NCBI GenBank assembly: GCA_030698395.1
Contig: JAUYKW010000026.1
Location: forward strand, 12,797-76,796
Origin: a bacterium
GTDB taxonomy: Bacteria > Patescibacteriota > Patescibacteriia > UBA9570
DNA length: 64,000 nucleotides
Direction of reading: 5' to 3'
Below, piece by piece: positions 7,423-25,296 of this stretch (positions are counted from its first letter, which is position 1; each line of letters starts with the position of its first letter). The translations under genes were made by a program, and so were the position numbers. The notes beneath the pieces were generated by a model. That model was not told the DNA's origin and ran no database searches. It saw only the letters and a program-made list of their open reading frames with translations.

Positions 7423-7668
7423 TTATTCTGTCATGAAAACGTGGTTGCCATGCGAAATGATTCCAATTATTTTTATTACCCCATCTTGTAACTGCAGATT
7501 TATATGATCGAACAATTGTTGATATGGAATTTGATTTTGGTGAAACATTAGAATAAAAATTTTATTTGTTACAGAATCGTTTCGTTTTTGGGTAGAGACG
7601 TTGCATGCAACGTCTCTACGACGATCATTAATCACAATGATCCCGTGTACATGATTTGGCATTATCAC
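7423..7668 (-). pseudogene. degraded HUH (IS200/IS605 Y1 or RAYT-like) transposase fragment
   Basis: The ORF begins exactly at MPNHVHGIIVI (HuH motif). The upstream region and the catalytic Tyr region are missing. It contains a REP-like palindrome. The surrounding 7.3-7.7 kb is AT-rich junk. Confidence 0.35.
7592..7619. repeat. 28-bp perfect palindrome GTAGAGACGTTGCATGCAACGTCTCTAC (REP-like, variant centre)
   Basis: Shares GTAGAGAC/GTCTCTAC arms with the palindromes at 19348 and 25259. Confidence 0.6.
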
Positions 7669-7852
7669 AAATGCTCATTAATTAATATATCAAAAAATAC
7701 ATTTTATACAAAAAACCGCTCATTATAATATGAAGCGATCTTTCAAAAAAATTCTGGAGGAAGCCCATGTGTATGTCATGCTGGGAATGAACCCACACGA
7801 TCATGTTCACACGAGCAATCCTCGTTACTGGTTCACTACCGCGGCTGCGACT

Positions 7853-8029
7853 CTACCAGAGGTACGTATTCTCAGTCCGAGACCGATCTTCTGCGTCAGG
7901 ATCATTCTCTTTCGCGTAATCGTCTGCCCAGTCCTGAGCCACAGCACCCAAGACCTTCGCGAAGAAAATCATGGTACCCAGGGACGCAACGCTAGCGCCA
8001 ACTTGCGCCAGCAACACAACAACAGTCAT
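7853..8029 (-). CDS. small 1-TM membrane protein with acidic C-tail, on a high-GC islet
   Basis: GGAG lies 6 nt upstream of the ATG at 8029. The protein is MTVVVLLAQVGASVASLGTMIFFAKVLGAVAQDWADDYAKENDPDAEDRSRTENTYLW. The tail resembles that of the 6969 gene. Confidence 0.45.
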   Translation of the reverse strand: MTVVVLLAQVGASVASLGTMIFFAKVLGAVAQDWADDYAKENDPDAEDRSRTENTYLW

Positions 8030-8365
8030 CTTCAGCTCCACAATACGCAGGTTCTGGAAGGAACTGCGGTAGGATTAACGAGGATTGGCTATGTAGCCAA
8101 AAAAAATTTTACTATATTAATAATATTTGTCAATAGTATTTTTTAGATAAAAATAAAAAACGACCGGTTCTGATTTCAGCAATGGTCGTGAAAGCTACAA
8201 ATTCAGTTGTTAAGTTTATGGGTACCTGTGACATTCAAAATGATTATCACAGGCGTTCCTCCTTGCAGCGTCAACCGCCAGAACGAACTAGCCCGTGGTG
8301 CATCAGTTTGAAGCCGAAATAAATCGAGCTCCTAACATCATTACACCACGAGCATCGTCCCAGCT

Positions 8366-8512
8366 TTACTCCTTCGGCTTCAGTCGATTTTCTTCGTACA
8401 CCGGATCGGTCCGGGCCCGATACATCATGAATGCTGCCAGACCGAGCGAGCCACCGATGAAAACGGTAATCAGGAGCAGAGTTAACAGGGGCGAGTTCTC
8501 GATGAATGTCAT
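8366..8512 (-). CDS. small 1-TM membrane protein with charged C-tail, on a high-GC islet
   Basis: Strong SD GGAGGA lies 5 nt upstream of the ATG at 8512. The protein is MTFIENSPLLTLLLITVFIGGSLGLAAFMMYRARTDPVYEENRLKPKE. Confidence 0.5.
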   Translation of the reverse strand: MTFIENSPLLTLLLITVFIGGSLGLAAFMMYRARTDPVYEENRLKPKE

Positions 8513-8595
8513 AACAGTCCTCCATAGACAGATATTATCGAGATGCACACCTTATTAAATAATCCGCTATCTGTAAAGTTCACAAGAATCATGAA

Positions 8596-9540
8596 GTGTC
8601 GTACAATAGTTATATGACTGTAAATAAATTAATTATAGAATTTCTAGAATACTTAGAAATTGAGCGCAATCGTTCTGCTCAAACTATTAAAAATTATGAT
8701 TATTACCTGAAAAGGTTCCTAAAACTTTCAAAAGTTAAAACTCCGCAAGATATTACTCAAGATAAGGTAAGAAAATATCGTCTACAATTAAACCGTATCA
8801 CCAACCCAAATACAGGAGAACCTCTTAAGAAAAAAACTCAAAATTATCACATGATTGCACTGCGAGCTTTTCTAAAGTATCTCGCTAAACGAGATATCAA
8901 ATCAATGGCAGCAGAAAAAATTGAATTAGCCAAACAAGAAGATCGTCAAATCGAATTTCTAGATGGTAGTGAACTTGAACGACTACTAGAAGCTCCACTT
9001 CAAGTAAAAGGTAATGAAATTATAAAATTACGAAATAAAGCAATCTTAGAACTGTTATTTTCTACAGGATTACGTGTTTCAGAATTAGCGCATTTAAAAA
9101 TTTCTGATATCAATTTAAAACGCGAAGAATTCTCTGTGCGTGGTAAAGGCGGTAAAGTAAGAATAGTATTTTTATCCGAACAAGCCAGATACTGGCTAAA
9201 AAAATATCTAGATAAAAGAACTGATATTTCGCCATACATGTTCGTTGCCCATGATCGCGCTCAATCAGCTCGTGAACAAACTGATAGCGCACCAATTACA
9301 TCACGATCCATTGAGCGTATGGTGAGTAAATATGCTAGAGTTGCCGGCATTATGAAAAAAATCACTCCACATACACTACGTCATAGTTATGCTACTGATC
9401 TACTACGTAATGGCGCAGATATTCGATCTGTTCAAAGTATGCTGGGTCACTCTTCTATTACCACAACTCAAGTTTATACTCACGTTACGGATCAACAATT
9501 AAAAAAGATCTATAAAAAATTCCACAACAAGAAGACATAG
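8596..9540 (+). CDS. tyrosine site-specific recombinase, XerC/XerD family
   Basis: R...HTLRHSYAT...GHSSITTTQVYTHV catalytic box. It lies next to the accessory junk region. Confidence 0.85.
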   Translation: MSYNSYMTVNKLIIEFLEYLEIERNRSAQTIKNYDYYLKRFLKLSKVKTPQDITQDKVRKYRLQLNRITNPNTGEPLKKKTQNYHMIALRAFLKYLAKRDIKSMAAEKIELAKQEDRQIEFLDGSELERLLEAPLQVKGNEIIKLRNKAILELLFSTGLRVSELAHLKISDINLKREEFSVRGKGGKVRIVFLSEQARYWLKKYLDKRTDISPYMFVAHDRAQSAREQTDSAPITSRSIERMVSKYARVAGIMKKITPHTLRHSYATDLLRNGADIRSVQSMLGHSSITTTQVYTHVTDQQLKKIYKKFHNKKT

Positions 9541-9560
9541 AAAATCGTAGCTTGTTTTCT

Positions 9561-11324
9561 TTATAAAGTTTGGAGATAACGCAAAGCTTTATTTCCACCC
9601 ACTTTAAACCTGCCATCACCAGAACTTTTTAACACATTGCTTTTTTGAAAAATCTTTACTCGCATTTGCCCCACTCCTGTTAAATCCAAAAGTAAACTTT
9701 TCGCACGTTGAGTATTCCAATATGCGTACATATCATAATGGCCTTTATGAAATCTATACAAATATGCATCCGCTATTTTAGACGCATATAATTCATCTAT
9801 ATAAACCGTACCCTCTTCCAAGCTACCGTCTGCATCATCCAAAATAAATGAATCGAATGTTAATGGATAATCTAACTTACCGTCGTTATTACCGCCCCAA
9901 CTTCCTTGATAATTCTTAAGTTGGATTGTATAGAACAACCATTCTTTTGGCATGTATCCTAAGTTGTATTGAAATGTTTCACCTTTATTATCAGTTATTC
10001 TAACTCTTAAAGTTGTATCATCATTATCTCCCTTTACTTTAAATTGCAAAGCTTTAATCCTTCCTGGCAACTGCTTCTGTAATGCAATCGGAGCATAACA
10101 ATTACCATTTCCTGTAAAATTATAGTACACCTTCATTGTGCCTCCATCATGATCATCTAGAGCTCCACTAGTACATTCAGTTTCAGAAAAATGCCATCCC
10201 TTGCTGGAAACAAAATTATCAATAATTCTATATTCTGGTAAATTCATTCCTTCAAAGTACTTTCTATTCAAATTACGTTGCATAAATTTGTAGGCATGAT
10301 ATGCAGGCTTAGGTTTATACTCATGATCCACTAATCCAAATTGAGATTCTAAATAGGACTCATCCGCAGAAGAATCTGTCATGGTGTACCAAAATACTTT
10401 TTTTACATTTGGAATAGATAGTGCAATAGTGTAAAATCGCATTAAATATTTAGCCTGCATATTCTCTGTGATACCTCCAGAATAAGTTGTCCATCCAGCT
10501 TCCGTAATCCAAATTGGTGTATCAGTAAAACCGTGTTTATTCATTACTGCCTTAACATTATAAATGTCTACATATAACGGATTCAATCCAGCACCAGTAC
10601 GCTCTGGCATATAGTTAAAATTTCCATCGATAGTTCGGTAAGGATGTATAGCCACAACTTCAATATCCGATTTATCATCTACTTCTGAAAAAAATTCATC
10701 TAACCAAACAGCATCTGCTCCTGATACACCACCCAAAATTACTTTTGCATCTGGATTGGCAGATTTGATTTCATCTACTGCTGAAGAATAATAGGTTGCG
10801 TACTCTTTCAAGCTACCTTTCCAAAAACCTTCATGATTTGGCTCATTCCAGATCTCCCATGTATCAACAGATCCAGCATAATGCTCTGCAACTTTACCAA
10901 CGTAATCTTTCCAAGCATCTAAATCTGGCGGATAAAATTCTGAATCTGATGCGCCCGGATTTGTTGATGCCCACGAACTACTATATGTTAATAATCCTAA
11001 CATCTCAATATTTTTGTCCTGATACGCTTGAAGCACATTATCATAAGTAGTCCAATTATAATTACCGTCAGATGGTTCTATAACATCCCAATTAAATTGC
11101 TCTCTACCCCACTGAGCTCCTGTAGCCTCTACCTTTCCCAATACTGTATCCCAATCCGCCTCATCAACTCGCTCTCGCAAATGAACATTCACGCCAAAAG
11201 CATCTTTGATTCTATCTGAATTCGCTGAAGCAATGCCTGGCATAAATAGTATGCTAAATAACATACCTATAAATACTGGGGCTATGATAGATTTTATGCG
11301 CATAATTTTAATCTTTATAAGCAT
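9561..11324 (-). CDS. secreted clan GH-A (GH5-like) glycoside hydrolase with C-terminal extension
   Basis: Signal peptide, WEIWNEPN (acid/base Glu) and IWITEAGW (nucleophile Glu). The likely true start is the Met at 11303, which avoids overlap with cca. Confidence 0.7.
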   Translation of the reverse strand: MLIKIKIMRIKSIIAPVFIGMLFSILFMPGIASANSDRIKDAFGVNVHLRERVDEADWDTVLGKVEATGAQWGREQFNWDVIEPSDGNYNWTTYDNVLQAYQDKNIEMLGLLTYSSSWASTNPGASDSEFYPPDLDAWKDYVGKVAEHYAGSVDTWEIWNEPNHEGFWKGSLKEYATYYSSAVDEIKSANPDAKVILGGVSGADAVWLDEFFSEVDDKSDIEVVAIHPYRTIDGNFNYMPERTGAGLNPLYVDIYNVKAVMNKHGFTDTPIWITEAGWTTYSGGITENMQAKYLMRFYTIALSIPNVKKVFWYTMTDSSADESYLESQFGLVDHEYKPKPAYHAYKFMQRNLNRKYFEGMNLPEYRIIDNFVSSKGWHFSETECTSGALDDHDGGTMKVYYNFTGNGNCYAPIALQKQLPGRIKALQFKVKGDNDDTTLRVRITDNKGETFQYNLGYMPKEWLFYTIQLKNYQGSWGGNNDGKLDYPLTFDSFILDDADGSLEEGTVYIDELYASKIADAYLYRFHKGHYDMYAYWNTQRAKSLLLDLTGVGQMRVKIFQKSNVLKSSGDGRFKVGGNKALRYLQTL

Positions 11325-12726
11325 TTAAGTCTGCTAATGCAGAACGATACTCCTTCATAATAGCACGAGCATCACTTTCTGACATCTCTTTAAAATCATC
11401 TACCAAAGCTTCTGCTCGGCTAGTTAAAAACTCAGCAGTATTTCGTTTTGGATCTTCCAATACTTCATCCAACAAACGATGGAGCACAACACCTATTTTT
11501 GCACCTGGCTTCATGCCATATTTCTTCATTAATTCATTGCCATCAATAGCTAACATGCTAGTTGATATTGGATCTTTCTGAACATGTTCTATTCTTTGCT
11601 CTAGCTCTATTAATTTGTAAGGTTTTTCTTTGTACACGCCAGACCCCATACGATCGGCAATTCTAACTGCCATTAAATCTTCTAAATGTTCCACACCAAC
11701 ACGCTGTAACAATCGTCTAACTCCAGCATCAGTAATTTCACCAACATTGTAATAAAACATATGATGTTTAACTAAATGAAAAATTCTCTTAATATCGTTA
11801 TTAGAAAAATTCATCCGTCGCATAATTTGGCGGGCAATTTTTGCACTAACATGTTCGTGTTGATAGAAAGTTGCATCCCTCCCAGATCCCTCCTTCACTT
11901 CAGGCTTGCCAATATCATGAAATAAAGAAGCAAGTCGTACCTGCCAATCATCAGAGGGACAAAACTGCATGGCTAACAAGTTATGAGAGAAAACAGTATA
12001 AATATGATGCAAGTTCTGTTCTACACCAACGCAATTTTCTAACTCTGGTATGATAATTGCTAATAACCCACTAGTATGGAGCTGCCAAAAAGCTTTGTAT
12101 GAATCATCCGTAGAAACCATTTTAATAATCTCGTCCCGAATACGCTCTTGAGAAACATGTTTGATAAGTTCTGTATTTTTTACAATTGCCTGCCAAGTTT
12201 CTGCTTCAATGGCAAAACCTAACTGGCTACTAAAACGAATCGCGCGCAACATTCTTAAAGCATCTTCTTGAAATCGTTCATTTGCATCACCAACTGCGCG
12301 GATTAATTCTTTATCAATATCCAAAATGCCGGCAAATTTATCAACCAGCTCTTCGCCATCATAAGCAAGTGCATTAATAGTGAAATCTCTCCGTTCTACA
12401 TCTTCTTGTAATGATACGCCAAACTTCACCTCATCTGGATGACGATGATCTGTATAACCACCCTCACTTCGATATGTGGTTATTTCAATTTCAGCCTTAC
12501 CAATTTTAACTGTTACCGTACCAAAAGTATTCAAATACAGTGTTTTTGGAAAAATCTTCTGTATTTCATCCGGCAAAGCATTAGTAGTAACATCCCAATC
12601 CTTTGGTGTCCGCTGCATAATTAGATCACGCAAACAACCACCTACTACATAGGCTTGATGCTCATTTTGGTGTAATATCTGTAACACCTGTTGAACTTCT
12701 TTCGGTAAGCTGATAGTATAATCCAT
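11308..12726 (-). CDS. cca: CCA-adding tRNA nucleotidyltransferase with HD domain
   Basis: Pol-beta-type NTase N-terminus (GGCLRDL...DWDVTT) plus an HD motif (LFHDIGKP). Confidence 0.8.
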   Translation of the reverse strand: MDYTISLPKEVQQVLQILHQNEHQAYVVGGCLRDLIMQRTPKDWDVTTNALPDEIQKIFPKTLYLNTFGTVTVKIGKAEIEITTYRSEGGYTDHRHPDEVKFGVSLQEDVERRDFTINALAYDGEELVDKFAGILDIDKELIRAVGDANERFQEDALRMLRAIRFSSQLGFAIEAETWQAIVKNTELIKHVSQERIRDEIIKMVSTDDSYKAFWQLHTSGLLAIIIPELENCVGVEQNLHHIYTVFSHNLLAMQFCPSDDWQVRLASLFHDIGKPEVKEGSGRDATFYQHEHVSAKIARQIMRRMNFSNNDIKRIFHLVKHHMFYYNVGEITDAGVRRLLQRVGVEHLEDLMAVRIADRMGSGVYKEKPYKLIELEQRIEHVQKDPISTSMLAIDGNELMKKYGMKPGAKIGVVLHRLLDEVLEDPKRNTAEFLTSRAEALVDDFKEMSESDARAIMKEYRSALADLNAYKD

Positions 12727-12749
12727 ACTGTTATTACAGTATCACGTCG

Positions 12750-12821
12750 GTCCCTGTAGTTCAACGGATAGAACAACGGCCTTCTAAGCCGTGGATGTAG
12801 GTTCGATTCCTGCCGGGGACA
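12750..12821 (+). tRNA. tRNA-Arg (anticodon TCT)
   Basis: Manual cloverleaf: acceptor GTCCCTG/CGGGGAC, anticodon loop CUUCUAA, T-loop TTCGATT. CCA is not encoded. Confidence 0.85.
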
Positions 12822-13080
12822 CAATTAGAAATCAACACAATATAAAATCTCTATTCAGAGCATTCAAAAAACTGGATAAAAAATGGCAAAATATTGCATA
12901 ATATCAATTCTTTTGTTAAAATATTTTAGCTCTTTTTATTGTAAATCAATCTGGAAACAGAAACTAGAAAAGGTTAAATTAAAGCATGATACGACTTATC
13001 GTGGTATAAATATAGTCAGACAAAACTTCTTAAGTTCGTAGCCGAACAGAAAGGCAATTGAATAATTCTCAATGGCAATT

Positions 13081-13130
13081 CCGTTCAGTTTCGAACTACT
13101 AAGTAAGATTCTGATTTTGACAGGGTAGCT
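13081..13130 (+). repeat. degenerate duplicate of the tRNA-Met 5' leader and first 12 nt (pseudo-tRNA fragment)
   Basis: CCGTTCAGTTTCGA plus TGACAGGGTAGCT occur here and again at 13198..13244, where they form the real tRNA start. Confidence 0.4.
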
Positions 13131-13232
13131 TCTGAACAAGTTCTTGAAAACTCGAAATTGAACAGACAAGTAGCTAGTTAATAACACTAAGGCTTATCCG
13201 TTCAGTTTCGATCGATGTGAGAAACTGTTCGT

Positions 13233-13309
13233 GACAGGGTAGCTCAGCTGGTTAGAGCGCGGGACTCATAAGCCCGAGGTCGAGGGTTCAATCCCCTCTC
13301 CTGTCACCA
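13233..13309 (+). tRNA. tRNA-Met (CAT; elongator type or possibly Ile2-lysidine)
   Basis: Acceptor GACAGGG/TCCTGTC paired at 1:72, anticodon loop CUCAUAA, T-loop TTCAATC. CCA is encoded. Confidence 0.8.
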
Positions 13310-13310
13310 T

Positions 13311-13386
13311 GGTGGGCGTGGCGCAGTGGTAGCGCAGCGGCTTGTGGTGCCGTTGGTCGGGGGTTCGAATCCCCTCGTTCACCCCA
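13311..13386 (+). tRNA. tRNA-His (GTG) with encoded G-1
   Basis: Extra 5' G pairing with discriminator C73, anticodon loop UUGUGGU, T-loop TTCGAAT. CCA is encoded. Confidence 0.85.
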
Positions 13387-13476
13387 AATATTTAAACCAA
13401 CCTTTTTGGTTGGTTTTTATTTTGCAACCAGATTGGTAACAATAGATAAGAGTAATTAATAATTATTCATCTATGA

Positions 13477-14586
13477 ATGAGCCAAGAAAAAACAAATAGT
13501 AATGGCAGAGGCATATTGCCATCAGCATCAGTTTTACAAAAACTAGTTGTAGAATTCACAATTCGCGAACGTTGGTTTTTAGTAATTATTTTAGTTGGCT
13601 TAACTCTTGCTGGAGTTGCGCTTAGACTACCTCTAGGATTTACCATGGCAATTGGATTTATTTTTGCCAGTTATCCTGTAATTGCAAATGATTCAATCCA
13701 AACCCTCGGAACATTTATTGCATCCAACCGTGACGTTGCTTGGTGGAAAAAATGGCTCTTTATGGGCGGAATATTTATTATCACCATGGTTTTTTCATGG
13801 ATAATGTTCGACGGTGATCTTTCCTTTCAACGCCTAGCATCAAAAGGATTTAATGAAACACCTACTGCATTTCACTATCTACAAATCATCGCTCCTCTAG
13901 CATTGCTTGTATTAACACGATTACGGATTCCAGTTTCAACTAGCTTACTAATTCTTACTGCTTTTGCCACAGAAGCTAGTGCAATTCAAAAGGTTGTAAT
14001 GAAAAGTCTTAATGGATATGTATTAGCTTTTGTTGGTGCAGTTATTCTTTGGGGATTAATTACAAGATTAGAAGAAAAATTATTTACATCTCCTGCTAAA
14101 CCATATTGGCGTTGGTTACAATGGATTACGACTGGCATACTATGGTCTTTTTGGTGGCAACAGGATGCAGCCAATATAGCAGTTTACCTCCCACGACAAA
14201 TACCTCTGATAGGACTAATTGGATTTTTAGCTGTAATATTTTTTGGGCTTGGTTTGCTAATGAAAAAAGGAGGTGAACGCATTCAACAAATTGTTGAAGA
14301 AAAAAGTTACATAGTTGATATTCGTTCTGCAACAATAATTGACGCTCTCTACGCTGTAATTCTATGGTATTTTAAAGTTATTAGTAATATCCCAATGAGT
14401 ACAACCTGGGTATTTCTAGGACTACTTGCTGGAAGAGAATTAATGATCGCACTGCGTAGTAAACGAAAAGGCAAGAGATCTTTTTGGTCTGCTGGAAGAA
14501 TTATTGCTTTAGATGCAGTCGCGGCAACAATTGGCTTAATTATCAGCTTGATTATTGGAGCAAGTGTAAACGGAATTTCGTTTTAA
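13477..14586 (+). CDS. polytopic membrane protein, PiT-like (inorganic phosphate transporter family) candidate
   Basis: IANDSIQTLGTFIAS and QQDAANIAVYLP resemble the duplicated GANDVANA signature. About 10 TM helices. Confidence 0.45.
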   Translation: MSQEKTNSNGRGILPSASVLQKLVVEFTIRERWFLVIILVGLTLAGVALRLPLGFTMAIGFIFASYPVIANDSIQTLGTFIASNRDVAWWKKWLFMGGIFIITMVFSWIMFDGDLSFQRLASKGFNETPTAFHYLQIIAPLALLVLTRLRIPVSTSLLILTAFATEASAIQKVVMKSLNGYVLAFVGAVILWGLITRLEEKLFTSPAKPYWRWLQWITTGILWSFWWQQDAANIAVYLPRQIPLIGLIGFLAVIFFGLGLLMKKGGERIQQIVEEKSYIVDIRSATIIDALYAVILWYFKVISNIPMSTTWVFLGLLAGRELMIALRSKRKGKRSFWSAGRIIALDAVAATIGLIISLIIGASVNGISF

Positions 14587-14674
14587 GAAATAATTCAAAC
14601 AAGACATGTAAGTAATTATTGATATTTTTTGAATCTGACAATATTTAGAACTTCTGATAAAATAATAAATACAT

Positions 14675-15121
14675 ATGAAATTAATAATCAGAAAAATCAG
14701 AACCATTGATCACCCAGAGGTAATCAATCTAATTAAGGCCTTTTATCGAGAAGATACCGAGGGTTTGCCTACAAATATCCGAAAAATTCGAAAAACTTTT
14801 CGCCATTTACAAAATTCTCGGCGCGGAGAAATTATTGTGGCAAAAATGAATAATAAAGTTGTGGCATATTCTATTCTGGCGAATTATTGGAGTAATGAAT
14901 ATGGTGGTAACATTCTGCACATCGACGAACTATATGTTGCAGCAGACTATCGTAGCCATGGCATCGGAACGCGAATGTTAAAGTATATCAAGAAAGAATA
15001 CGGACAAGATGCCAAAGCTCTAATGCTGGAAGTAATACCCTCAAATACCCGAGCAGAACATCTATATAATAAAATGGGCTTTAAGCCTGTGCGCAATAAA
15101 TTCTTCATCCAAAAAATTTAG
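14675..15121 (+). CDS. GNAT family N-acetyltransferase
   Basis: IDELYVAADYRSHGIGTRML acetyl-CoA binding motif. Confidence 0.8.
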   Translation: MKLIIRKIRTIDHPEVINLIKAFYREDTEGLPTNIRKIRKTFRHLQNSRRGEIIVAKMNNKVVAYSILANYWSNEYGGNILHIDELYVAADYRSHGIGTRMLKYIKKEYGQDAKALMLEVIPSNTRAEHLYNKMGFKPVRNKFFIQKI

Positions 15122-15204
15122 AATAACAAAATACACCTAGTATATATCTCCTCTAATCTAGCTTATAGAAAAAAATTGAAATCAATCGATACAAAATATT
15201 AATA

Positions 15205-15525
15205 ATGTTACTAGTAGTTACTGGTGTTTTTTGGTTCATTAACTCAATACTCTTCTTACTTACTTCAAATGTTGATTCAACTTTAACTAAATATATTGTC
15301 TCTCTATTGTTACTTATAAATAGTGCTGGATTTTTTTTGTTACTTTACGGATTCCTGACGCGAAAAAGTTGGACTAATATATCAGCAATTGTTTTCTTGT
15401 TACTTAACATCGTACTTACGATAACAAATGATTTCGGCATGGCAGATTTTGGAATCATCATTATCTATGCAATTACTCTTATTATCTTTATAATGAATAT
15501 TAAATCAGTTACCAAAAAAAAATGA
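15205..15525 (+). CDS. small membrane protein (3 TM)
   Basis: Hydrophobic profile only. Confidence 0.4.
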   Translation: MLLVVTGVFWFINSILFLLTSNVDSTLTKYIVSLLLLINSAGFFLLLYGFLTRKSWTNISAIVFLLLNIVLTITNDFGMADFGIIIIYAITLIIFIMNIKSVTKKK

Positions 15526-16076: not shown

Positions 16077-16180
16077 GATTACATGCCGAGTGATAATGAT
16101 CAGGATCACTCATAATCAATAAAAAGAGCCGGCGATTAACCGACTCTTCACTTCTATATGGATTCGAAGCTTTTTAAATT

Positions 16181-17379: not shown

Positions 17380-17957
17380 TGTTGATTTATTACTTTTTTC
17401 AATTTTTTCTTAGCTCTATTAATTAGAGTAGCTATAGTTCCTTCTGGTTTTCTTAGAATATCAGAGATTTCTTTATAACTCTTTTCTTCTAAATATTTTA
17501 ACACCAATACATCTCGATATTTAGCGTCCAATTTTTGCAATGCTGTTTGCATGTGCTCTCGTAAAATTGCTTTATCTATATCCTGTTCAATATCTGTATC
17601 ATCTTGAAACATAGAATCGTATTGTTCATCTGAGATAACCACACTATTACCATGGGGACGTGCCTTCCGCGACCTAAAATCACTAATCACTTGATTATGA
17701 GCTATTCGGTAAATCCATGATGAGAAGGGCATTTTTGGATTATAACTATTCAGATTCTGATAAGCCTTTATAAACGTCTCTTGCAAAATATCCTCAGCAT
17801 CTTCATTTGTTACATTCGTTAGTCTTCTAATATAACGCAATAAAGGCTGTTCATATTTTTCTATAATGTACTTAAAACGCTCGTTGTTTTGAACACTTTG
17901 GCTCACCAACTCTTGATCTGAATATTTCTCACTATCTGTGGAATGCATAGTGTTCAT
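17376..17957 (-). CDS. RNA polymerase sigma factor, ECF (sigma-70 region 2 and 4) family
   Basis: DAEDILQETFIKAYQNL (region 2) and EISDILRKPEGTIATLINRAKKKL (region 4 HTH). Confidence 0.8.
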   Translation of the reverse strand: MNTMHSTDSEKYSDQELVSQSVQNNERFKYIIEKYEQPLLRYIRRLTNVTNEDAEDILQETFIKAYQNLNSYNPKMPFSSWIYRIAHNQVISDFRSRKARPHGNSVVISDEQYDSMFQDDTDIEQDIDKAILREHMQTALQKLDAKYRDVLVLKYLEEKSYKEISDILRKPEGTIATLINRAKKKLKKVINQQ

Positions 17958-18060
17958 CTTTAAGTAATACGCAACAAATACACATTTTCTTTCATTTAAT
18001 TTTTGCTAGTATTAAGTATTTAGTTTATAATATAGCTAATTAATTCATAATTACCATAGC

Positions 18061-18552
18061 ATGAAATACAACAAAACAATCATTCTGGGTATCGGCGCAC
18101 TACTTAGTGCTATAGTACTAGCTGGCGCTGCTTGTGGTACTGATGCAGATACCACTACACCAGTAACTACAACAACTGACACCGCAACAACTAAAGTAGA
18201 AGTTGCTGATACCGCAGATGCAGGATTTGATCAAACAACTCCAGAAGGAACAATAGAGCTTGTTTTCTTAGCTGCTAGCATAGGAGATATGAGTCTCGTA
18301 GCCGACCTTTGTGATCCTACAGGAGACAACGACGGTGACACTCAAGCTATTTGTGATTTAGGCACAGACGCAATAGGTGAAGCAACTGAAGATGAATTCG
18401 TACAAGTCTTTGCAGCTGGTAAAGTTACCGGAGATGCGGTAATCGAGGCAGACGAAGCAACAGTCCCATTCATGTTCGGACAAGACGGAACGGATGAGGA
18501 AACCATGACTCTGATCAACAGAGATGGTATGTGGTATCTATACAGCTTCTAA
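18061..18552 (+). CDS. acidic Thr-rich lipoprotein
   Basis: Signal peptide with lipobox LAGAAC. Confidence 0.55.
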   Translation: MKYNKTIILGIGALLSAIVLAGAACGTDADTTTPVTTTTDTATTKVEVADTADAGFDQTTPEGTIELVFLAASIGDMSLVADLCDPTGDNDGDTQAICDLGTDAIGEATEDEFVQVFAAGKVTGDAVIEADEATVPFMFGQDGTDEETMTLINRDGMWYLYSF

Positions 18553-18628
18553 ATACTCCTCCATAAACCTAAAAGATTGTAATCAGAGATACTCTCTAGT
18601 TGCAATCTTTTTTTATGCCAGATAAACT

Positions 18629-19333
18629 ATGGTCTACATGACTAACTCTAAAGATAAAACTAAGCAGAAAGAAAACGCACTGATCAACATTGTGATTAAT
18701 ATTGTAATTCCATCAATTATCTTGATGAAATTTAGTGGCGATCAACAATTGGGTCCGGCTTATGGATTAATTATCGCCCTCTTATTTCCTTTTGGCTATG
18801 GCGTTTATGATTTTATCAAACGAAAAAAATATAATTTTATTTCTATACTAGGAATTATTAGTATATTTCTAACTGGTGGTATAGGATTATTACATTTAGA
18901 TATTAAATGGATTGCAGTAAAAGAAGCTGCTGTACCACTCATTATTGGACTGGCGATTTTATTTTCTACAAGAACAAAGTTTTCTTTTGTAGAAAAACTT
19001 CTAGCTGAAATGTTAGATATGGAAAAAATTAATACCTCACTCAAGCTCCATAAAGCAGAATTTGCTTATAAAAAACGCATGAAAATTGTGAATTATTTAA
19101 TAGTAGGATCCTTCATGCTATCAGCAACACTAAATTATATTCTAGCCAAAGTAATTGTTATTAGCCCTTCCGGTACACCAGAGTTTACTGCAGAACTAGG
19201 AAAATTAACTGCTCTTAGTTACCCGGTAATTGCTCTGCCATCGACCATTGTAATGATAGTAGCATTAGTATATTTGATTACCGGCATCACAAAAATTACT
19301 GATTTGGAAATTGAAGATTTGGTTAGTAAATAA
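18629..19333 (+). CDS. membrane protein (6 TM), unknown function
   Basis: Hydrophobic profile. Confidence 0.5.
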   Translation: MVYMTNSKDKTKQKENALINIVINIVIPSIILMKFSGDQQLGPAYGLIIALLFPFGYGVYDFIKRKKYNFISILGIISIFLTGGIGLLHLDIKWIAVKEAAVPLIIGLAILFSTRTKFSFVEKLLAEMLDMEKINTSLKLHKAEFAYKKRMKIVNYLIVGSFMLSATLNYILAKVIVISPSGTPEFTAELGKLTALSYPVIALPSTIVMIVALVYLITGITKITDLEIEDLVSK

Positions 19334-19347
19334 AAATGATTGTAAAT

Positions 19348-19387
19348 AAATAAGTAGAGACATGCCATGGCATGTCTCTACTTATTT
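19348..19387. repeat. 40-bp perfect REP-like palindrome AAATAAGTAGAGACATGCCATGGCATGTCTCTACTTATTT
   Basis: Perfect dyad verified base by base. It lies between convergent genes. Confidence 0.7.
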
Positions 19388-19416
19388 TACGTTAGATCTT
19401 TTTAGGTAGCGTAATA

Positions 19417-19992
19417 TTACAATCCTAGAAACACCCTCGCATATCCTACGGCTGTAGGATGTATACCAGCAAAGCCAGTTGCTAATGCTATAGCATCATC
19501 GTTGCCGTTATTATTCACATCTCCACATAAAATTAATGTTCCAAACAAACCATTTGAAATGGAAGATTTTTTATTTGACATTAATTTCGTTTTAAGCGAA
19601 TATTTAGCCACACTTTTTTCGAAATATGCCACCGCTTGTGTGATTCCTGTAAAGGAAACACCTAATGAGAGGACAGAGAGGTGATATTTTACAGAACATT
19701 GAGAGTCAGTGAAGCTACGGCTGCTTGGGCATACGGCATGGCCAGGCTCCGAACCCGTAAGCGAGAAACAGTCATCAATCCGAGGGACAACATCAGCACC
19801 TGCACGATCCACCGATCCGGACCGTCTAGTGCCGTCCTGATGCAGATCCCAAGGAGAAGAAACGCAACTCCGGTACGGTACCACCTGCACCTTCGAGTGT
19901 ACTCCCACCGTGGAGAACTGCTGGTGCGGAGTATTCTGGCCGACAGCGCCAGAAGCATTCCGAAAGTGAGGAGGAACAAGACCCGAGAACAT
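19417..19992 (-). CDS. uncertain chimeric ORF: AT-rich 3' part (dockerin/FG-GAP-like GDVNNNGNDD) fused to a high-GC 5' part
   Basis: Composition switches abruptly around 19650. The high-GC part (19680-20040) has overlapping ORFs on both strands. Confidence 0.25.
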   Translation of the reverse strand: MFSGLVPPHFRNASGAVGQNTPHQQFSTVGVHSKVQVVPYRSCVSSPWDLHQDGTRRSGSVDRAGADVVPRIDDCFSLTGSEPGHAVCPSSRSFTDSQCSVKYHLSVLSLGVSFTGITQAVAYFEKSVAKYSLKTKLMSNKKSSISNGLFGTLILCGDVNNNGNDDAIALATGFAGIHPTAVGYARVFLGL

Positions 19993-20043
19993 CCTGCACC
20001 AATGGATTTCTCGGGTCGTGTTCTTATTTGCTATAATTAAGGC

Positions 20044-20694
20044 ATGATATTTAAAAACCGTGTAGACGCCGGAAAAAAATTAGCTACCGCTCTGACTGAT
20101 TATAAAAATCAAAAAGATACTATGGTTGTAGCTCTACCCAGAGGAGGGGTGATATTAGGCTATGAAGTTGCAAATAAATTAAACTGCCCACTAGATATTG
20201 TAGTGCCACGCAAAATAGGTGCACCCGGAAATGAAGAATTCGCAATCGGAGCAATCGCCGAAGATGGAGAAGGTTTTTTTGATGACAACACGATTTACAG
20301 CTCCAACGTATCACAAGAATACATCGATAAAACTGTAAAAACAGAAAAAGTAGAAGCAAATCGTAGACTTGTCACCTACCGAGGAAATCGTCCACCACTA
20401 GACTTAACAGACAAAACAGCAATCATTGTAGATGATGGCATAGCAACTGGATACACCATGCTAGCAGCAATTGAATCTGTAAAAATAAAAAATGCAAAAA
20501 AAATTATTGTAGCTGTACCAGTAACTGCCAAGGATTCTATAGAAACAATTATACCCAAAGTTGATGAAGTTATTTACCTAGATGCCCCAATCTTCTTTGG
20601 TGCAGTTGGTATGTTCTATACCGAGTTTAACCAAACTACAGACGAAGAAGTAATCGCTTTATTGCAAAAAGCTCAAAAGCTCTCTACCACGTAA
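20044..20694 (+). CDS. phosphoribosyltransferase-family protein
   Basis: IIVDDGIATGYTM PRPP-binding motif. Confidence 0.7.
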   Translation: MIFKNRVDAGKKLATALTDYKNQKDTMVVALPRGGVILGYEVANKLNCPLDIVVPRKIGAPGNEEFAIGAIAEDGEGFFDDNTIYSSNVSQEYIDKTVKTEKVEANRRLVTYRGNRPPLDLTDKTAIIVDDGIATGYTMLAAIESVKIKNAKKIIVAVPVTAKDSIETIIPKVDEVIYLDAPIFFGAVGMFYTEFNQTTDEEVIALLQKAQKLSTT

Positions 20695-20701
20695 TTGCTT
20701 A

Positions 20702-22030
20702 TTACTTTTTTCTTAAATCTTTATACCACCGCCACACTGGCTTATTGGTAAAATCTTCCTGGAGTAATCCAAAATAGGCCTCATAAGCATCTAGATATGT
20801 CCGATCCCGGATAGTATATAGCAGAATAGGGCGAGTGTATTTATATGAACGCAACAATTTAACAGCCTGCTTTGTATATCGTCGTACTAATGTATCATCT
20901 ATGCCATACTCTCCAGTGGAACATCCCATTTCGGTAACCCAAATTTTCTCATTCTTGCGATATGTAGAAACTAATCTATTCAATGCTTCCCAATCCATCT
21001 GCAATCTTCCTAAATCTTCTCCATCGTCTCGAAATTCATCACAGTAATATAAATGTACGTTCAACTCATCGAAATATGGTTTACCTTCTTCGTACATCTG
21101 CTTAATAAAATCCTGATCATTGATATTTGCAATCGCTCCATTTAAAACTATGGCATCTTTATCATATTTCCTAATTACTCTGGATCCAACTTTTAAAATT
21201 GGCTTATATGTTTTCCAATTATTTGGCGTCATATAATCTGGGCTATCTGGTTCGTTCCAGATTTCCCAAACATCAACGTAATTACGATATCTTTTTACAA
21301 CCTTTGTTACATAACGCTGCCATTTTTCTTTTCCGGGAGGATGATGCTCGTTACTCGCTTCACCATATGCTAACATTCCAACTACTCGCATGTTTCTATC
21401 CTTATACTTCAACATTGTTTGATCGTATCTTTTTAACCAAGCACTAGAATCGTCTCCCATGATTAACTTATAACTAAAATGCTCCCGTGCCCATTTTGTA
21501 TTAGAGCTATCAAGCTTACTCGCAAATTGTTCATCGTCATTTGCATTACTTCCCAACGCCCAATGAACATTTAACCCCACAGTTCTCTTGGTAGACTTTT
21601 TTACATGAGGAGTATGATTCAGATATCTTTTTACGCGTTGTTTTTTATAGCTTCCTAAAAAAGGATCAAAAATCTGAATTTTTTTATCTGCGATTACAAC
21701 AGGTTCACCAGTATTCTTTATTACAAGTTCGTATGTTGCATTACGTCGCTCCAACAAAGAATGATCAACAGTAATAGTGATATTCATGCCAGTGGAATTT
21801 CCGGCAATACTTGTAGCTTCAAACGGCCCTAACCAAACTGAAACATCACCACCTAATAAATAATTAAAATTCTCACCATAAATTGCAAAAGTTGAGCTGT
21901 ATGGTTCTGTTTCTATTACAGATATAAAATCTGTAGAATAAGAATCTACCACTGGCAATACTTCCTGCGCCGATGCCATAACAGGTAAAAATATAATGAA
22001 TGATGCTATTGCTAATATAATATTTTTCAT
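20702..22030 (-). CDS. secreted clan GH-A (GH5-like) glycoside hydrolase, paralog-type of the 9561 gene
   Basis: Signal peptide, VWEIWNEPDSP and IWVTEMGCS. Confidence 0.7.
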   Translation of the reverse strand: MKNIILAIASFIIFLPVMASAQEVLPVVDSYSTDFISVIETEPYSSTFAIYGENFNYLLGGDVSVWLGPFEATSIAGNSTGMNITITVDHSLLERRNATYELVIKNTGEPVVIADKKIQIFDPFLGSYKKQRVKRYLNHTPHVKKSTKRTVGLNVHWALGSNANDDEQFASKLDSSNTKWAREHFSYKLIMGDDSSAWLKRYDQTMLKYKDRNMRVVGMLAYGEASNEHHPPGKEKWQRYVTKVVKRYRNYVDVWEIWNEPDSPDYMTPNNWKTYKPILKVGSRVIRKYDKDAIVLNGAIANINDQDFIKQMYEEGKPYFDELNVHLYYCDEFRDDGEDLGRLQMDWEALNRLVSTYRKNEKIWVTEMGCSTGEYGIDDTLVRRYTKQAVKLLRSYKYTRPILLYTIRDRTYLDAYEAYFGLLQEDFTNKPVWRWYKDLRKK

Positions 22031-22136
22031 GAGTATAACAGTATACCGTTCTTTTAGAGACTAATCAATTGTAATCTCTACAAGGACGGATCGAACATGA
22101 ACATGATAAATTATCAGTGGTTGTACGCCCTGGATC

Positions 22137-22547
22137 CTACTGTTTCATTCCCACCTGGATCGCATCAACCACATCCTGATGCATCAACGGTCCCTCCGCC
22201 AAGCCAGCATACACACCCTTGCAGAACTGAATCTCCAGTTCATGAAGAGCAACTCTCAAAATCAGGCTCAGCTCGTAATCATAGATCTGCGTCAGATCTG
22301 GGAATTGCGGGATACCCCATCGACTATCCAACTTCCCCGAGAATGGATTAGTGCCCGTCAGGTTGATATGATCCGTAATCACCATCAGCCGGTGTGGCTG
22401 AAAGGATGCATTGGTGAGTACCAACACCGAGGCACCCCACAACCGCATGACCCGTACTGCATGCACCACGACGTTCGCGAAATGACCTTCGTACAGATGC
22501 ACTCGACCACTGAGAACGACCACTGCGACATCATATGGCCTAATCAT
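22137..22547 (-). pseudogene. truncated purine nucleoside phosphorylase (PNP/MTAP family) fragment, high-GC
   Basis: VLVLTNAS...ITDHINLTGTNPFSG...GVYAGLAEGP match the PNP core. Both the N- and C-terminal regions are absent, leaving 136 aa against an expected roughly 270. Confidence 0.5.
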
Positions 22548-22644
22548 TGTCTATCCCATCCTGTATTATTGATGAACATTAAGGTTAGCTCGATAATATT
22601 ATAGAAAAACTTAATTCAGGTCAATTTATTTTCCTAACCAATTC

Positions 22645-23229
22645 ATGTACACTGTATTGATGAGTAAATTTTTAGAAGACCTCCAAGCAGAAGGCCGGTG
22701 GCATCAATGGATGCGCAAATATAAAGATTTGATATTTCAACCTTTTGCCAAATTCTGTGTAGTATTAAAAATTTCGCCTTCAGCTGTTACGATAGCTGGT
22801 TTTATATTGGGAATACTTAGTATCTGGTTACTATTCATTAATTACTGGTACTTTGTGCTAGCTATGTTTTTAAGTTTATTTTTAGATGGCGTTGATGGTG
22901 CATTAGCTAGACACACAAATACAGTATCTAAATTTGGCAAAACTTTCGATTATTACGTTGATACTATATTAATGATCCTCATGTTTAGTGCTTTAACGTT
23001 TTGGTTAGGTGAACCATTATGGATAATTGGCCTTGATATTTATGGATTAGTTTTCTTATCGAACATGATAGCAGGTTCTCCTTTACGACCAGTTCCAGGC
23101 AGAACAGCAATGCTAATTCCTTGCATGTTAGGGTTACCGAAAGTTGGATTATTTCTACTATCTTTGTACGGTATAACTATGGCCATTGCTTTAACAAGGC
23201 ATTTACTAACAAAACAGACAAAAATGTAA
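22645..23229 (+). CDS. CDP-alcohol phosphatidyltransferase family protein
   Basis: LDGVDGALARHTN...G...DYYVD signature. Confidence 0.75.
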   Translation: MYTVLMSKFLEDLQAEGRWHQWMRKYKDLIFQPFAKFCVVLKISPSAVTIAGFILGILSIWLLFINYWYFVLAMFLSLFLDGVDGALARHTNTVSKFGKTFDYYVDTILMILMFSALTFWLGEPLWIIGLDIYGLVFLSNMIAGSPLRPVPGRTAMLIPCMLGLPKVGLFLLSLYGITMAIALTRHLLTKQTKM

Positions 23230-23258
23230 GGACATGCCATGGCGTGTCCTTACATTTT
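23221..23258. repeat. REP-like palindrome AAAATGTAAGGACATGCCATGGCGTGTCCTTACATTTT (1 mismatch) followed by T-run
   Basis: Shares the GACATGCCATGGC core with the other copies. It lies between convergent genes. Confidence 0.6.
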
Positions 23259-23813
23259 TTGATAAATAAAGATTTTTTCTTTTTTATGATCAATTCTTTC
23301 TTTTGAAAAATACTTTTCTGCATCCTGTGGTAGTTCAAACATATTGCTTACAATTATACAACCAGGTTTACACTCTTTAATAAACTTTTCTGAAATTTTT
23401 GGCATCAATTTAGGAATCCAAAATCCAACAATTGCATCTGCATCGCTGATTGGATACATAAACATATCACCTTGTTCAATTTTTGGTTTACTTTTTGCTA
23501 ACAAAAATCGCAACCTTGCAATTCGTGCTAAATTAGAACTTATTTCCACTCCAAAAAACTCTGCATCTTTATACTTTTTCCTTAAGCCAGAAATTAAGAC
23601 ACCATCACCACAACCAAGATCAACAATATTTTTTTTATTTTTCAAAACTCCAGACTCAATAATCAAATTAACTACCTTTTGTTGAGTTGGTACAAATGGT
23701 AGGGGCCGATTATATAAAAAAATAATTGGTAGCACTCTCCATATTATTCCTAACAATGCTATTAGCAAAACACATTGTAATACGATATAAATCCAGATTA
23801 TTACGTTTGGCAT
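23250..23813 (-). CDS. class I SAM-dependent methyltransferase with N-terminal TM segment
   Basis: VDLGCGDGVLI motif I. Confidence 0.7.
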   Translation of the reverse strand: MPNVIIWIYIVLQCVLLIALLGIIWRVLPIIFLYNRPLPFVPTQQKVVNLIIESGVLKNKKNIVDLGCGDGVLISGLRKKYKDAEFFGVEISSNLARIARLRFLLAKSKPKIEQGDMFMYPISDADAIVGFWIPKLMPKISEKFIKECKPGCIIVSNMFELPQDAEKYFSKERIDHKKEKIFIYQKM

Positions 23814-23935
23814 AGTAATAGCATAACATACCTAAAAACATTGACTAGGTAATCCAAAACTAGTAATGTGTTGGGCACGATCTGTACATTTCACCGCCCA
23901 AATATTACAAAAGGGCACAAACCGAGAGGATTCTC

Positions 23936-25111
23936 ATGGGTACCCAGCACGTTAGTCGCAATGTCATCATCGTCGGCGATTCTCCCAACAAGAACGCTGG
24001 CGAACATCATCCCTTCACCATGGTAGACGGAGCCATCTACCACACTGACATGGTCGGCATCGATCCCCGAGCCAGCGCCGTCAACTACGGCCTCGCACGC
24101 ATCTCCGGCTATGGAGCCTGGCGCCGTCCCGAGGACGATACGCACTGGATGTTCCGCCCGGAAGACCACATGACGCGCATTCACCAGAACGCTTTGGCCA
24201 TTCCCGTTCTGGGAGATTTCCCGAGCACAAACATGCTCGTAGACTGGTCCATAACCAGTCTGGGCCTCGGCATCCCTCACCTCACGCGGGCCAAGGACGT
24301 CTACGGACGGACGCTAGTGGTGCAGGGTGGCGTCGCTCTCGGTGTTGGAACCCGCGGTCACGGCCACGTGATCAACTTCACGCGAGACCTGACAGAATAT
24401 GTTCCGGCTGAAGGGCTGGATCTGCTGTTCCCTGGCATGCTCTGTCGCCGACCCAACATTTTCATGGGTCGCCCCTTCGAAAAGGCGGCCGGCAACTACG
24501 ACTTGGCCCACTTCTGGAAAGGCGTCGTTGCCAAGGGACTAGGCTTCAACGAAATTCTGATGCTCAACTGGAACGGCACCGAAATCGCCGAGACCAGTGG
24601 TAGCATCCCGGTAGCCATCGTCCGCCTGTCGGACAAGAAAATTCAGATGCGTGTGCCACGCCTGGAATCCGGCCGACTGAATTCGATCACCACTGACACA
24701 CTCATCTACTTGGCCCATAAGCTGGGCTGGGAAGTAATCGTGAACCAACGCCTGACATTGGATCACCTGATCCATGCGGACGAACTCTGGGTGGCTGGTT
24801 CCTGGAGTGGTCTTGCTAGTGTGAGGAACATTAGCTTGGACCAACGCTGGATGCGTGAAGCACCCATCCTTCCACCTGAGATCTTCAGAGACGGAGTAGG
24901 GCCGGCATACAAAGCGTGGCTGGATGAAAATTTTCAGCCCGTGAATGCTCGCAAACTGGGCTGGACCCCTTCCTTCGCACCTGGTCCACTCGGTACTCAG
25001 CTCCGCGAACTCTACTGGGGCGTGGTGCGCAACCGCCCAGAATTCCGGCGCATCGATCGTCCCAGCAACTGGAATGTCAAGGTGAACCCGATCGTCCCAA
25101 ACACGGAATAA
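23936..25111 (+). CDS. aminotransferase class IV (BCAT/D-amino-acid aminotransferase fold)-like protein, high-GC
   Basis: FRPEDHMTRIHQNA, NWNGTEIAETSGS, ITTDTLIYLAHKLGWEV and ADELWVAGS resemble fold-type IV PLP enzymes. GC is roughly 58 percent, against about one-third in the backbone. Confidence 0.5.
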   Translation: MGTQHVSRNVIIVGDSPNKNAGEHHPFTMVDGAIYHTDMVGIDPRASAVNYGLARISGYGAWRRPEDDTHWMFRPEDHMTRIHQNALAIPVLGDFPSTNMLVDWSITSLGLGIPHLTRAKDVYGRTLVVQGGVALGVGTRGHGHVINFTRDLTEYVPAEGLDLLFPGMLCRRPNIFMGRPFEKAAGNYDLAHFWKGVVAKGLGFNEILMLNWNGTEIAETSGSIPVAIVRLSDKKIQMRVPRLESGRLNSITTDTLIYLAHKLGWEVIVNQRLTLDHLIHADELWVAGSWSGLASVRNISLDQRWMREAPILPPEIFRDGVGPAYKAWLDENFQPVNARKLGWTPSFAPGPLGTQLRELYWGVVRNRPEFRRIDRPSNWNVKVNPIVPNTE

Positions 25112-25258
25112 AGATCTAGGAGGACACCTGGAGCCACGTACCAATGTACGTAGCAACAGGTGGGGGAAATTGTTATGCATGCATAACGTTTCCCCGCCTC
25201 CCCAATGGTTATTAGCTACTTAATAGCTATCGGTGAGAATCAAAATAACTTAAATAAA

Positions 25259-25296
25259 AAACAGTAGAGACATTCCATGGCATGTCTCTACTGTTT
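25259..25296. repeat. REP-like palindrome AACAGTAGAGACATTCCATGGCATGTCTCTACTGTT (1 mismatch)
   Basis: Lies between convergent genes. Same family as the 19348 copy. Confidence 0.65.

Follow-up and report, generated by a model that had tools for sequence, protein, structure and literature searches.

Four palindromes and their hairpins

The window analysed here is the whole of a 64,000-nucleotide stretch (contig JAUYKW010000026.1, positions 12,797 to 76,796) of a patescibacterial metagenome-assembled genome (MAG), and the elements in question are four short palindromes, one of which lies inside the remnant of a transposase gene. We identify them, with high confidence, as a family of repetitive extragenic palindromes (REPs) and a degraded REP-associated tyrosine transposase (RAYT) of TnpA_Y1 subclass 2.4. 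The host is a member of the Patescibacteria, its polynucleotide phosphorylase being 63-70% identical to Candidatus Kerfeldbacteria and Patescibacteria-group proteins. A preceding sequence-only reading had listed four palindromes with a shared core, and all four are present where it placed them:

7592..7619: REP copy 1, a perfect 28-bp palindrome, GTAGAGACGTTGCATGCAACGTCTCTAC, in frame (RRDVACNVST) within the RAYT remnant
19348..19387: REP copy 2, a perfect 40-bp palindrome; core 19354-19381 (GTAGAGACATGCCATGGCATGTCTCTAC) with AAATAA/TTATTT flanks
23220..23259: REP copy 3, 40 bp with one mismatch; core 23226-23253 (GTAAGGACATGCCATGGCGTGTCCTTAC) with AAAAAT/ATTTTT flanks
25254..25301: REP copy 4, 88% complementary; core 25264-25291 (GTAGAGACATTCCATGGCATGTCTCTAC, one inner mismatch), preceded by an A-tract and followed by a T-tract

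The shared core holds for copies 2-4 but not for copy 1, whose agreement with the other three is limited to the outer 8 bp (GTAGAGAC/GTCTCTAC) and the CATG at the centre; the inner stem reads GTTG/CAAC in this copy, whereas that of the intergenic copies is ATGC/GCAT. The pattern GTAGAGAC-N(6-16)-GTCTCTAC has three matches in the window (7592-7619, 19354-19381 and 25264-25291) against 0.00 expected from 100 shuffles, and the core GACATGCCATGGCATGTC matches at 19359, 23231 and 25269 with 0, 1 and 1 mismatches, respectively, against 0.04 expected. In copy 3 the feet are altered to GTAAGGAC/GTCCTTAC and the opposite arm compensates both changes. Each unit carries a double foot, GTAG...CTAC in copies 1, 2 and 4 and GTAA...TTAC in copy 3, and the family has the form of a 20-40 bp palindrome with a terminal GTAG tag; GTAG-tagged REPs have already been grouped as a superfamily (Di Nocera et al. 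2013, PMC3733652). On either strand, all copies form very stable hairpins, with energies of -20.5 to -28.8 kcal/mol and z-scores of -4.9 to -8.1, the two strands giving -28.8 and -26.8 kcal/mol for copy 2 (z about -8), -25.0 and -21.5 kcal/mol for copy 3, and -21.2 and -24.1 kcal/mol for copy 4.

A second assembly of the same sequencing run (Logan, SRR13727534) is identical at every base across both regions compared. Together, the 64-kb window and a further 2.6 kb covered by Logan contain four REPs, and no further copies or half-sites were found in the 64 kb, even at up to three mismatches. Contigs of the Logan assemblies break inside perfect palindromes: L160 starts at window position 19358, and L162, from a relative, ends in a REP (14340-14368). 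Perfect REPs fragment de Bruijn-graph assemblies, and REP counts from short contigs are thus underestimates. An Rfam scan of the window at gathering thresholds returned four tRNAs and nothing else. A permissive Rfam scan assigned copy 1 to whalefall-1 at 17.9 bits (gathering threshold 37, E 0.2), a match that was not reproduced on seven REP-rich loci and is attributed to chance. A literature search for the 8-mers yielded only unrelated primer lists.

A decayed transposase gene of subclass 2.4

The gene that contains copy 1 lies on the minus strand and comprises the following features:

7361..7674, minus strand: TnpA_REP/RAYT pseudogene of subclass 2.4 (two-frame translations, tblastn, NF047646, Y1_Tnp, 4ER8)
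7656-7645, minus strand: HuH motif NHVH (translation of open reading frame 7423-7668)
~7560-7572, minus strand: frameshift in an A/T run
7450-7445, minus strand: W motif WQ, within FAWQPRF, the W at 7450-7448 (second reading frame)
7387-7370, minus strand: Y motif YIYNNP (second reading frame)
7363-7361, minus strand: premature stop TGA, where homologs have a conserved Trp (NP.xW)

The open reading frame (ORF) at 7423-7668, 80 aa in length and annotated as a 79-aa hypothetical protein, had been described as beginning at an MPNHVHGIIVI HuH motif, and its translation confirms this: it opens V-I-MPNHVHGIIVI and reads VI-MPNHVHGIIVINDRRRDVACNVSTQKRNDSVTNK... before passing into unrelated sequence, while a second frame carries the remnant onward (...NFYSNVSPKSNSISTIVRSYKSAVTRWGNKNNWNHFAWQPRFHDRIIRNEYELKRIRKYIYNNPRN*). 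A Pfam search with the raw ORF and its neighbours gave no match. Once both frames are joined (100 residues), the similarity to Y1 transposases becomes apparent, with E 1.7e-10 against the NCBIfam model REP_Tyr_transpos (NF047646, profile positions 55-131 of 146) and E 3e-4 to 2e-3 against Pfam Y1_Tnp (PF01797; 18.7-21.2 bits, cut-off 23). The joined remnant also matches the E. coli TnpA_REP (4ER8) across the WQPRF...YIxNP stretch, and a profile built from 27 homologs matches 4ER8 with E 6.9e-9, spanning both the HuH and the Y regions. A database search with the remnant retrieved 153 homologs, many labelled RayT, whose full-length members have 160-175 aa. This evidence substantiates the earlier assignment to a degraded HUH/Y1 transposase of RAYT type. 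When full-length homologs were compared with the window by tblastn, their residues ~53-158 were covered and no second RAYT match appeared in the window. Homology sets in at AFVIMPNH (~7674), immediately after in-frame stops. About 75 N-terminal residues are absent, as are the last 15-20, and the gene falls short of the intact conserved core of about 146 aa (median protein 194 aa). Because it combines truncation with a frameshift and a premature TGA, the remnant is a pseudogene; judged by these lesions, it is a dead member of subclass 2.4 and not a functional one, and the window is predicted to encode no active enzyme.

Among the database homologs, 21 of 120 start at the conserved Met of (V/I)MPNH(V/I)H, as the window ORF does (P0001, P0002, P0018, P0023, P0030, P0045, P0049 and others). 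Many public "RayT" entries of subclass 2.4 probably stem from genes with 5' truncations or frameshifts, restarted at that Met by gene callers.

TnpA_Y1 subclass 2.4 corresponds to RAYT group 4 of Bertels et al. 2017 (Quentin, Siguier, Chandler and Fichant 2018, BMC Genomics 19:475, PMC6006769). Its published hallmarks are the motifs NH[IFV]H (HuH), WQ (W) and YIxNNP (Y), "long" or "double foot" REPs with 5' GT[AG]G and 3' C[TC]AC, a REP in frame inside tnpA_REP, and hosts among Cyanobacteria, Bacteroidetes and various other phyla (PMC6006769). The remnant resembles this subclass in NHVH, WQ and YIYNNP, in its internal double-foot REP and in the patchy spread of its family across phyla. It differs in being a pseudogene that lacks ~75 N-terminal residues and has no flanking REPs, in residing in a MAG of the Patescibacteria, that is, of the candidate phyla radiation, and in the terminator-like A/T-tract contexts of the local intergenic REPs, which are atypical of the family. 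In sequence, then, the remnant agrees with subclass 2.4 on every defining feature and departs from the class only in intactness and flanking REPs. The sequence-only reading had called the pairing analogous to that of proteobacteria; it was right about a REP family accompanied by a RAYT, but the design is in fact the published one of subclass 2.4.

An identity as IS200/IS605 was rejected. The TnpA of these insertion sequences (IS; subclass 1.1) is likewise an HUH enzyme with a single catalytic tyrosine that recognises single-stranded DNA hairpins. Its Y motif, however, is Y---Q, whereas that of the remnant, YIYNNP, is of the Y---NP type, and the window has one gene fragment with neither subterminal IS ends nor tnpB.

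A REP within the transposase gene

The palindrome at 7592-7619 encodes RRDVACNVST, 13 residues from the start of NHVH. In many homologs from unrelated sources, the HuH motif is followed after a few residues by RDVACNVST or by VETLHATSL, and these two peptides are two frames of one 28-bp palindrome. At the DNA level this is borne out by the loci L165 (40% GC) and L166 (52% GC), whose genes hold exactly GTAGAGACGTTGCATGCAACGTCTCTAC at the same position: one reads it as TGT-AGA-GAC... and the other as GTA-GAG-ACG..., giving CRDVACNVST and VETLHATSL, respectively. The REP-coded peptide occurs in 49 of 120 homologs (28 in the first frame, 21 in the second), always between HuH and Y. The same 28-mer accounts for 24 of the 172 copies sampled from other genomes.

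The recurrence of RDVACNVST at a similar position in many homologs could be taken to mean that the palindrome is a protein-coding feature, its peptide being functionally required, and no inserted REP at all. We consider this hardly credible. One and the same DNA is translated in different homologs into unrelated peptides, the only frame never seen is the third, which would open with a TAG stop, and the peptide is missing from 71 of the 120 homologs and repeated in tandem or in part in others (P0014, P0023, P0113). Moreover, the 28 bp are identical in L165 and L166 while the proteins are each only ~58% identical to the window remnant. By this pattern of frames the in-gene palindrome is a DNA element and not a protein motif, and its presence within the gene is a hallmark of the family, not an accident.

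Dispersal of the family and maintenance of the hairpin

The general pattern GTAGAGAC-N4-CATG-N4-GTCTCTAC was found in at least 120 genome stretches and in 38 viral-contig stretches. The genome matches listed belong to Cyanobacteria, Bacteroidota, Chloroflexota, Ignavibacteriales, Acidobacteria, Desulfobacterota and Gammaproteobacteria, with one Parcubacteria MAG. The 38 stretches classed as viral are IMG/VR contigs (L001-L038), which may be phage genomes or host fragments. Most copies, 159 of 174, lie in loci without a RAYT-like ORF (172 copies from other loci and three from the window, minus a counting overlap).

The hairpin is kept throughout this spread. Over the eight free stem positions of 43 distinct variants, 96.9% of cells are paired and 74 cells are changed on both sides; none of 500 shuffles reaches the observed covariation, and no slid structure comes close. 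This suggests that the stem is upheld either by selection or by hairpin-templated correction. A single REP unit is thus found at many unrelated loci with its hairpin retained, and the palindromes form a real REP family, as the earlier reading had supposed.

Gene context of the intergenic copies

Members of the GTAG REP superfamily prefer sites between convergent and unidirectional ORFs (PMC3733652), and three of the window's copies had been described as lying exactly between convergent genes. For copies 3 and 4 this is firm. The former lies between a CDP-alcohol phosphatidyltransferase gene (plus strand, ending at 23229) and a methyltransferase gene (minus strand, ending at 23250), both supported by Pfam, and its feet hold the stop codons (TAA and TAA) of both genes; the latter lies between a 58% GC gene resembling class IV aminotransferases (plus strand, ending at 25111) and the gene at 25331-26392 (minus strand). 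Copy 2 starts 15 nt past the stop of the gene at 18629-19333 (plus strand). Downstream of it is either the called ORF 19417-19992 (minus strand), which may be spurious, or the degenerate remnant, on the plus strand, of a small GC-rich gene that is intact in relatives; because this remnant occupies that space, the convergent arrangement is uncertain for copy 2.

Copies 2-4 have A-rich 5' and T-rich 3' flanks (5-7 of the adjacent 8 nt on all six sides), which extend the pairing past the feet, and thus combine, at the 3' ends of genes, a stable G+C-containing stem with a U-tract on either strand, the layout of a bidirectional terminator. A terminator scan called copy 4 terminator-like on the minus strand. 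We conclude, with moderate confidence, that these copies probably sit in, or were shaped into, bidirectional Rho-independent terminators. They resemble such terminators in the A-tract, the G+C-containing stem, the T-tract at gene 3' ends and the stability of both strands; here, by contrast, it is a mobile repeat, also present in unrelated organisms, that provides the stem, and the activity is a prediction.

The same features raise the question of whether the intergenic palindromes are simply ordinary intrinsic terminators of this lineage, with no mobile origin and no link to an HUH enzyme, any likeness to REPs being due to descent or convergence. Their A/T tracts and positions at gene 3' ends would fit, there are only three of them in 64 kb, and the native terminator-like hairpins of the window have the same A-tract/stem/T-tract build. 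Yet at least 120 metagenome stretches contain GTAGAGACATGCCATGGCATGTCTCTAC as an exact 28-mer, its flanks there being unrelated and mostly free of T-tracts. It is found inside and flanking intact RAYT genes, and at the orthologous convergent site the relatives L161 and L162 carry another small hairpin. This explanation is therefore very improbable and can be regarded as largely refuted.

The intergenic stem variant and its transposase

The stem variant of the intergenic copies, GAGACATKCCATGGMATGTCTC, is present in at least 120 JGI metagenome stretches. Full GTA...TAC feet are found in 108 of 129 of these metagenome copies, whose flanks are unrelated; about 15% have at least 3 bp of extra flank complementarity, which is above the ~2 expected by chance and far from universal. 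RAYT-like genes contain eleven of the copies, and ten are no more than 1 kb away from such a gene. Two loci, L229 and L252, have the variant upstream of, inside (as VETCHGMSL) and downstream of an intact RAYT of 182-200 aa, more closely 186-189 aa, which constitutes a complete REPtron. Several of the metagenome loci with this variant have 32-36% GC.

These loci bear on the question of whether the remnant spread the intergenic copies at all. The copies may instead represent a sister subfamily (ATGC/GCAT) served by a VETCHGMSL-type RAYT whose gene lies, or once lay, in another part of the genome, while the remnant would be an independently acquired gene that has decayed. In the REPtrons of L229 and L252 one inner-stem variant is found inside and on both sides of each intact RAYT, whereas in the window the remnant has GTTG/CAAC and all three intergenic copies have stems of ATGC/GCAT type; the remnant also lies in a lineage-specific junk region adjoining a Xer-type recombinase gene. 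Mixed variants do occur around a single gene, however, since L166 has a GTTG-variant REP in its gene and a GCCC/GGGC one just downstream. Furthermore, in other TnpA_REP groups recognition is reported to rely mostly on the GTAG foot and the shape of the hairpin (PMC8266576), which are common to all window copies. We hold this scenario to be a serious possibility, though not the favoured one; it is compatible with the identification of a REP family and a dead RAYT and refines the pairing between them, in that the remnant may not be the cognate enzyme of the intergenic copies.

The REP with a GCCC/GGGC inner stem downstream of the intact RAYT in L166 (6556-6584) has the same sequence as the REP in which L162 ends. 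It is followed, at ~6820-6900 of L166, by another RAYT copy, partial and with an internal REP of its own; tandem decayed copies thus occur.

High-GC islands

The window has 36.8% GC and contains ten islands of 200-1250 bp with 51-61% GC. GC-rich genes and fragments (GC 51-68%) are located as follows:

Window: 6920-7307, 7791-8039, 8286-8487, 19680-20001
Window: 22134-22520, 23923-25168, 26522-27041, 48198-50247
L161: 4017-4508, 5217-5435, 6778-7146, 9308-9973
L162: 3861-4397, 6791-7177, 9265-9930, 13889-14320

The palindromes had been proposed to mark, or create, insertion hot-spots for such islands, and a nominal proximity does exist in the window: all four REPs are 109-684 bp from the nearest island, whereas ~23% of window positions lie within 700 bp of one. 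In the relative L162, too, a double-foot REP is found 20 nt past a 57% GC ORF. This test of proximity is nevertheless post hoc and rests on four sites, and it does not extend to the family: the 93 copies examined in other low-GC loci are not enriched near islands, with 7 against 5.8 expected and 2 against 2.9 expected within 400 nt. In L161 and L162, single genes of 57-68% GC stand among genes of 36-42% GC at the same syntenic slots without any REP, and in the window whole native genes separate copy 3 from the nearest islands. It is simpler to suppose that REPs and islands both survive only in permissive intergenic spots, and we regard the hot-spot proposal as unlikely.

Most of the GC-rich slot genes belong to no Pfam family. 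In one slot, L161 and L162 have orthologous GC-rich small ORFs and the window a decayed remnant; in another, the GC-rich content of the window is unrelated to that of the relatives. We have found no explanation for this persistence of GC-rich genes at fixed slots in an AT-rich Patescibacteria lineage, which is a separate oddity. Two GC-rich ORFs of the window have partial domain matches, that at 22137-22547 (minus strand) to PNP_UDP_1 (positions 44-150 of 233) and the 391-aa ORF at 23936-25111 (plus strand) to Aminotran_4 (positions 130-223 of 223), which suggests that they are gene fragments or strongly diverged foreign genes.

One could also imagine that REPs were recruited as the stems of bidirectional terminators and that they accumulate, together with GC-rich ORFs lacking known relatives, at a few conserved slots in this lineage. 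If true, this would imply that foreign DNA enters ultra-small genomes by a common insertion route, which might be based on single-stranded DNA and assisted by RAYTs. REPs do occur near islands in the window and once in L162; the lack of any family-wide association and the REP-less islands of the relatives leave the idea without support, and we find it improbable.

Relatives and neighbouring features

The closest orthologs of the flanking genes are 42-58% identical. In L161 and L162 the gene order is kept, and the site of copy 3 is a 48-nt spacer with a small unrelated hairpin. At this distance, the comparison yields neither a date for the insertion nor an exact target. The end of L162 holds another double-foot REP (GTAGAGACGCCCCGGCGGGGCGTCTCTAC), which indicates that the family is also present elsewhere in this clade; no RAYT gene was found in the relatives' syntenic contigs (L161-L164).

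Window positions 6800-8590, from an NYN-domain gene to the Xer-type tyrosine recombinase gene (8596-9540), are lineage-specific. This region contains a GC-rich ORF for a small membrane protein (6867-7238, plus strand), the RAYT pseudogene and two GC-rich pieces with ORFs that look non-coding, and the relatives have other genes or nothing at the equivalent place. It looks like a graveyard of inserted DNA beside a recombinase gene.

A conserved hairpin lies just upstream of a phosphoribosyltransferase gene (window 19974-20023; L161 ~7160-7235; L162 ~7185-7245). It has a fixed base (GGAGGAACAA ... GTTC(G)TTTT, followed by a TATAAT-like box) and an upper stem that keeps its pairing although its sequence differs completely among the three genomes. 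The hairpin probably terminates the GC-rich gene upstream and abuts the phosphoribosyltransferase promoter; alternatively, it may be a leader or attenuator. A further G+C-rich palindrome, GGGGAAATTGTTATGCATGCATAACGTTTCCCC, is found at 25164-25195, 50 nt past the stop codon of the aminotransferase-IV-like gene with 58% GC. It has no relation to the REPs and is probably the foreign gene's own terminator.

Discussion

Taken as a whole, the four palindromes are very probably GTAG "double-foot" REPs of the TnpA_Y1 subclass 2.4 type accompanied by a dead RAYT, the intergenic copies being relics or trans-mobilised elements in terminator-like settings. The identity of the sequences, their membership in the family, its dispersal, the covariation of the stem and the decay of the gene are observed directly.

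Several points weigh against this interpretation. The joined remnant scores 41 bits against NF047646, whose equivalog cut-off is 80; truncation of the gene explains why the curated cut-offs are missed. Apart from its internal copy, the remnant has no REP within 11 kb, and there is consequently no REPtron here. The window has only four copies, all inside 18 kb, and the inner stem of the remnant's own REP differs from that of the intergenic copies, which makes the pairing within the window inexact. Perfect palindromy could come from template switching at the DNA level and not from functional selection. Across the family, the T content beside REPs is at background (284 copies, 5-14% of sides reaching 5 of 8); terminator function is thus no property of the element itself. 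Finally, a search of the literature found no biochemical data on subclass 2.4 enzymes.

The system can be set beside two better-known ones. With the E. coli REPs and their TnpA_REP (subclass 2.2, 4ER8) it shares the HUH/Y1 fold family, GTAG at the foot of the hairpin and extragenic copies downstream of genes. The E. coli REPs, however, are imperfect, bulged and single-footed, number in the hundreds and are often part of bacterial interspersed mosaic elements, unlike those of the window, and the E. coli enzyme, with its DHLH and YIHYNP motifs, has no in-gene REP (PMC6006769). The REPIN-RAYT systems of Pseudomonas and Xanthomonadaceae (subclass 2.5, Group 3) likewise combine a domesticated single-copy Y1 transposase with dispersed short palindromes. 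Their REPs form inverted doublets in high copy number, whereas those of the window are single self-complementary double-foot units; such a unit could derive from a REP dimer via a central deletion (Quentin et al., PMC6006769).

As for the mechanism, the RAYT transposition and terminator activity that we infer would proceed as follows. A 28-bp REP with GTAG at its 5' end and CTAC at its 3' end offers a GTAG foot on either strand. By analogy with other subclasses, from which the in vitro support comes, the enzyme would bind the folded single-stranded hairpin and read the GTAG foot; the single-stranded DNA would then be cut and rejoined by means of the HuH-bound metal and the catalytic tyrosine. 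Cleavage and strand transfer are reported in vitro for the TnpA_REP of E. coli, S. maltophilia and Marinomonas only (PMC8266576). In the window, the gene copy has decayed by 5' truncation, frameshift and premature stop while retaining its internal REP. The intergenic copies would be relics, or would have been mobilised in trans by another RAYT, probably one carrying the ATGC/GCAT variant as in the metagenomic REPtrons. At the 3' ends of genes they now provide the G+C-containing stem of hairpins composed of A-tract, stem and T-tract, which most likely act as bidirectional Rho-independent terminators and as stabilisers of 3' ends.

How REPs or RAYTs work is not seen differently in the light of these results. 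In practical terms, the annotated 79-aa "hypothetical protein" is a pseudogene fragment, and the exact 28-mers can serve as convenient markers when metagenomes are searched for subclass 2.4 REPtrons. The window also provides a clean example of REPs in terminator-like contexts, in one case with the feet supplying the stops of two convergent genes. In the library searched, no paper linked REPs or RAYTs to Patescibacteria. The published REP-in-transposase design of subclass 2.4 is hereby extended to a bacterium of the candidate phyla radiation: the system is known, and the host is new.

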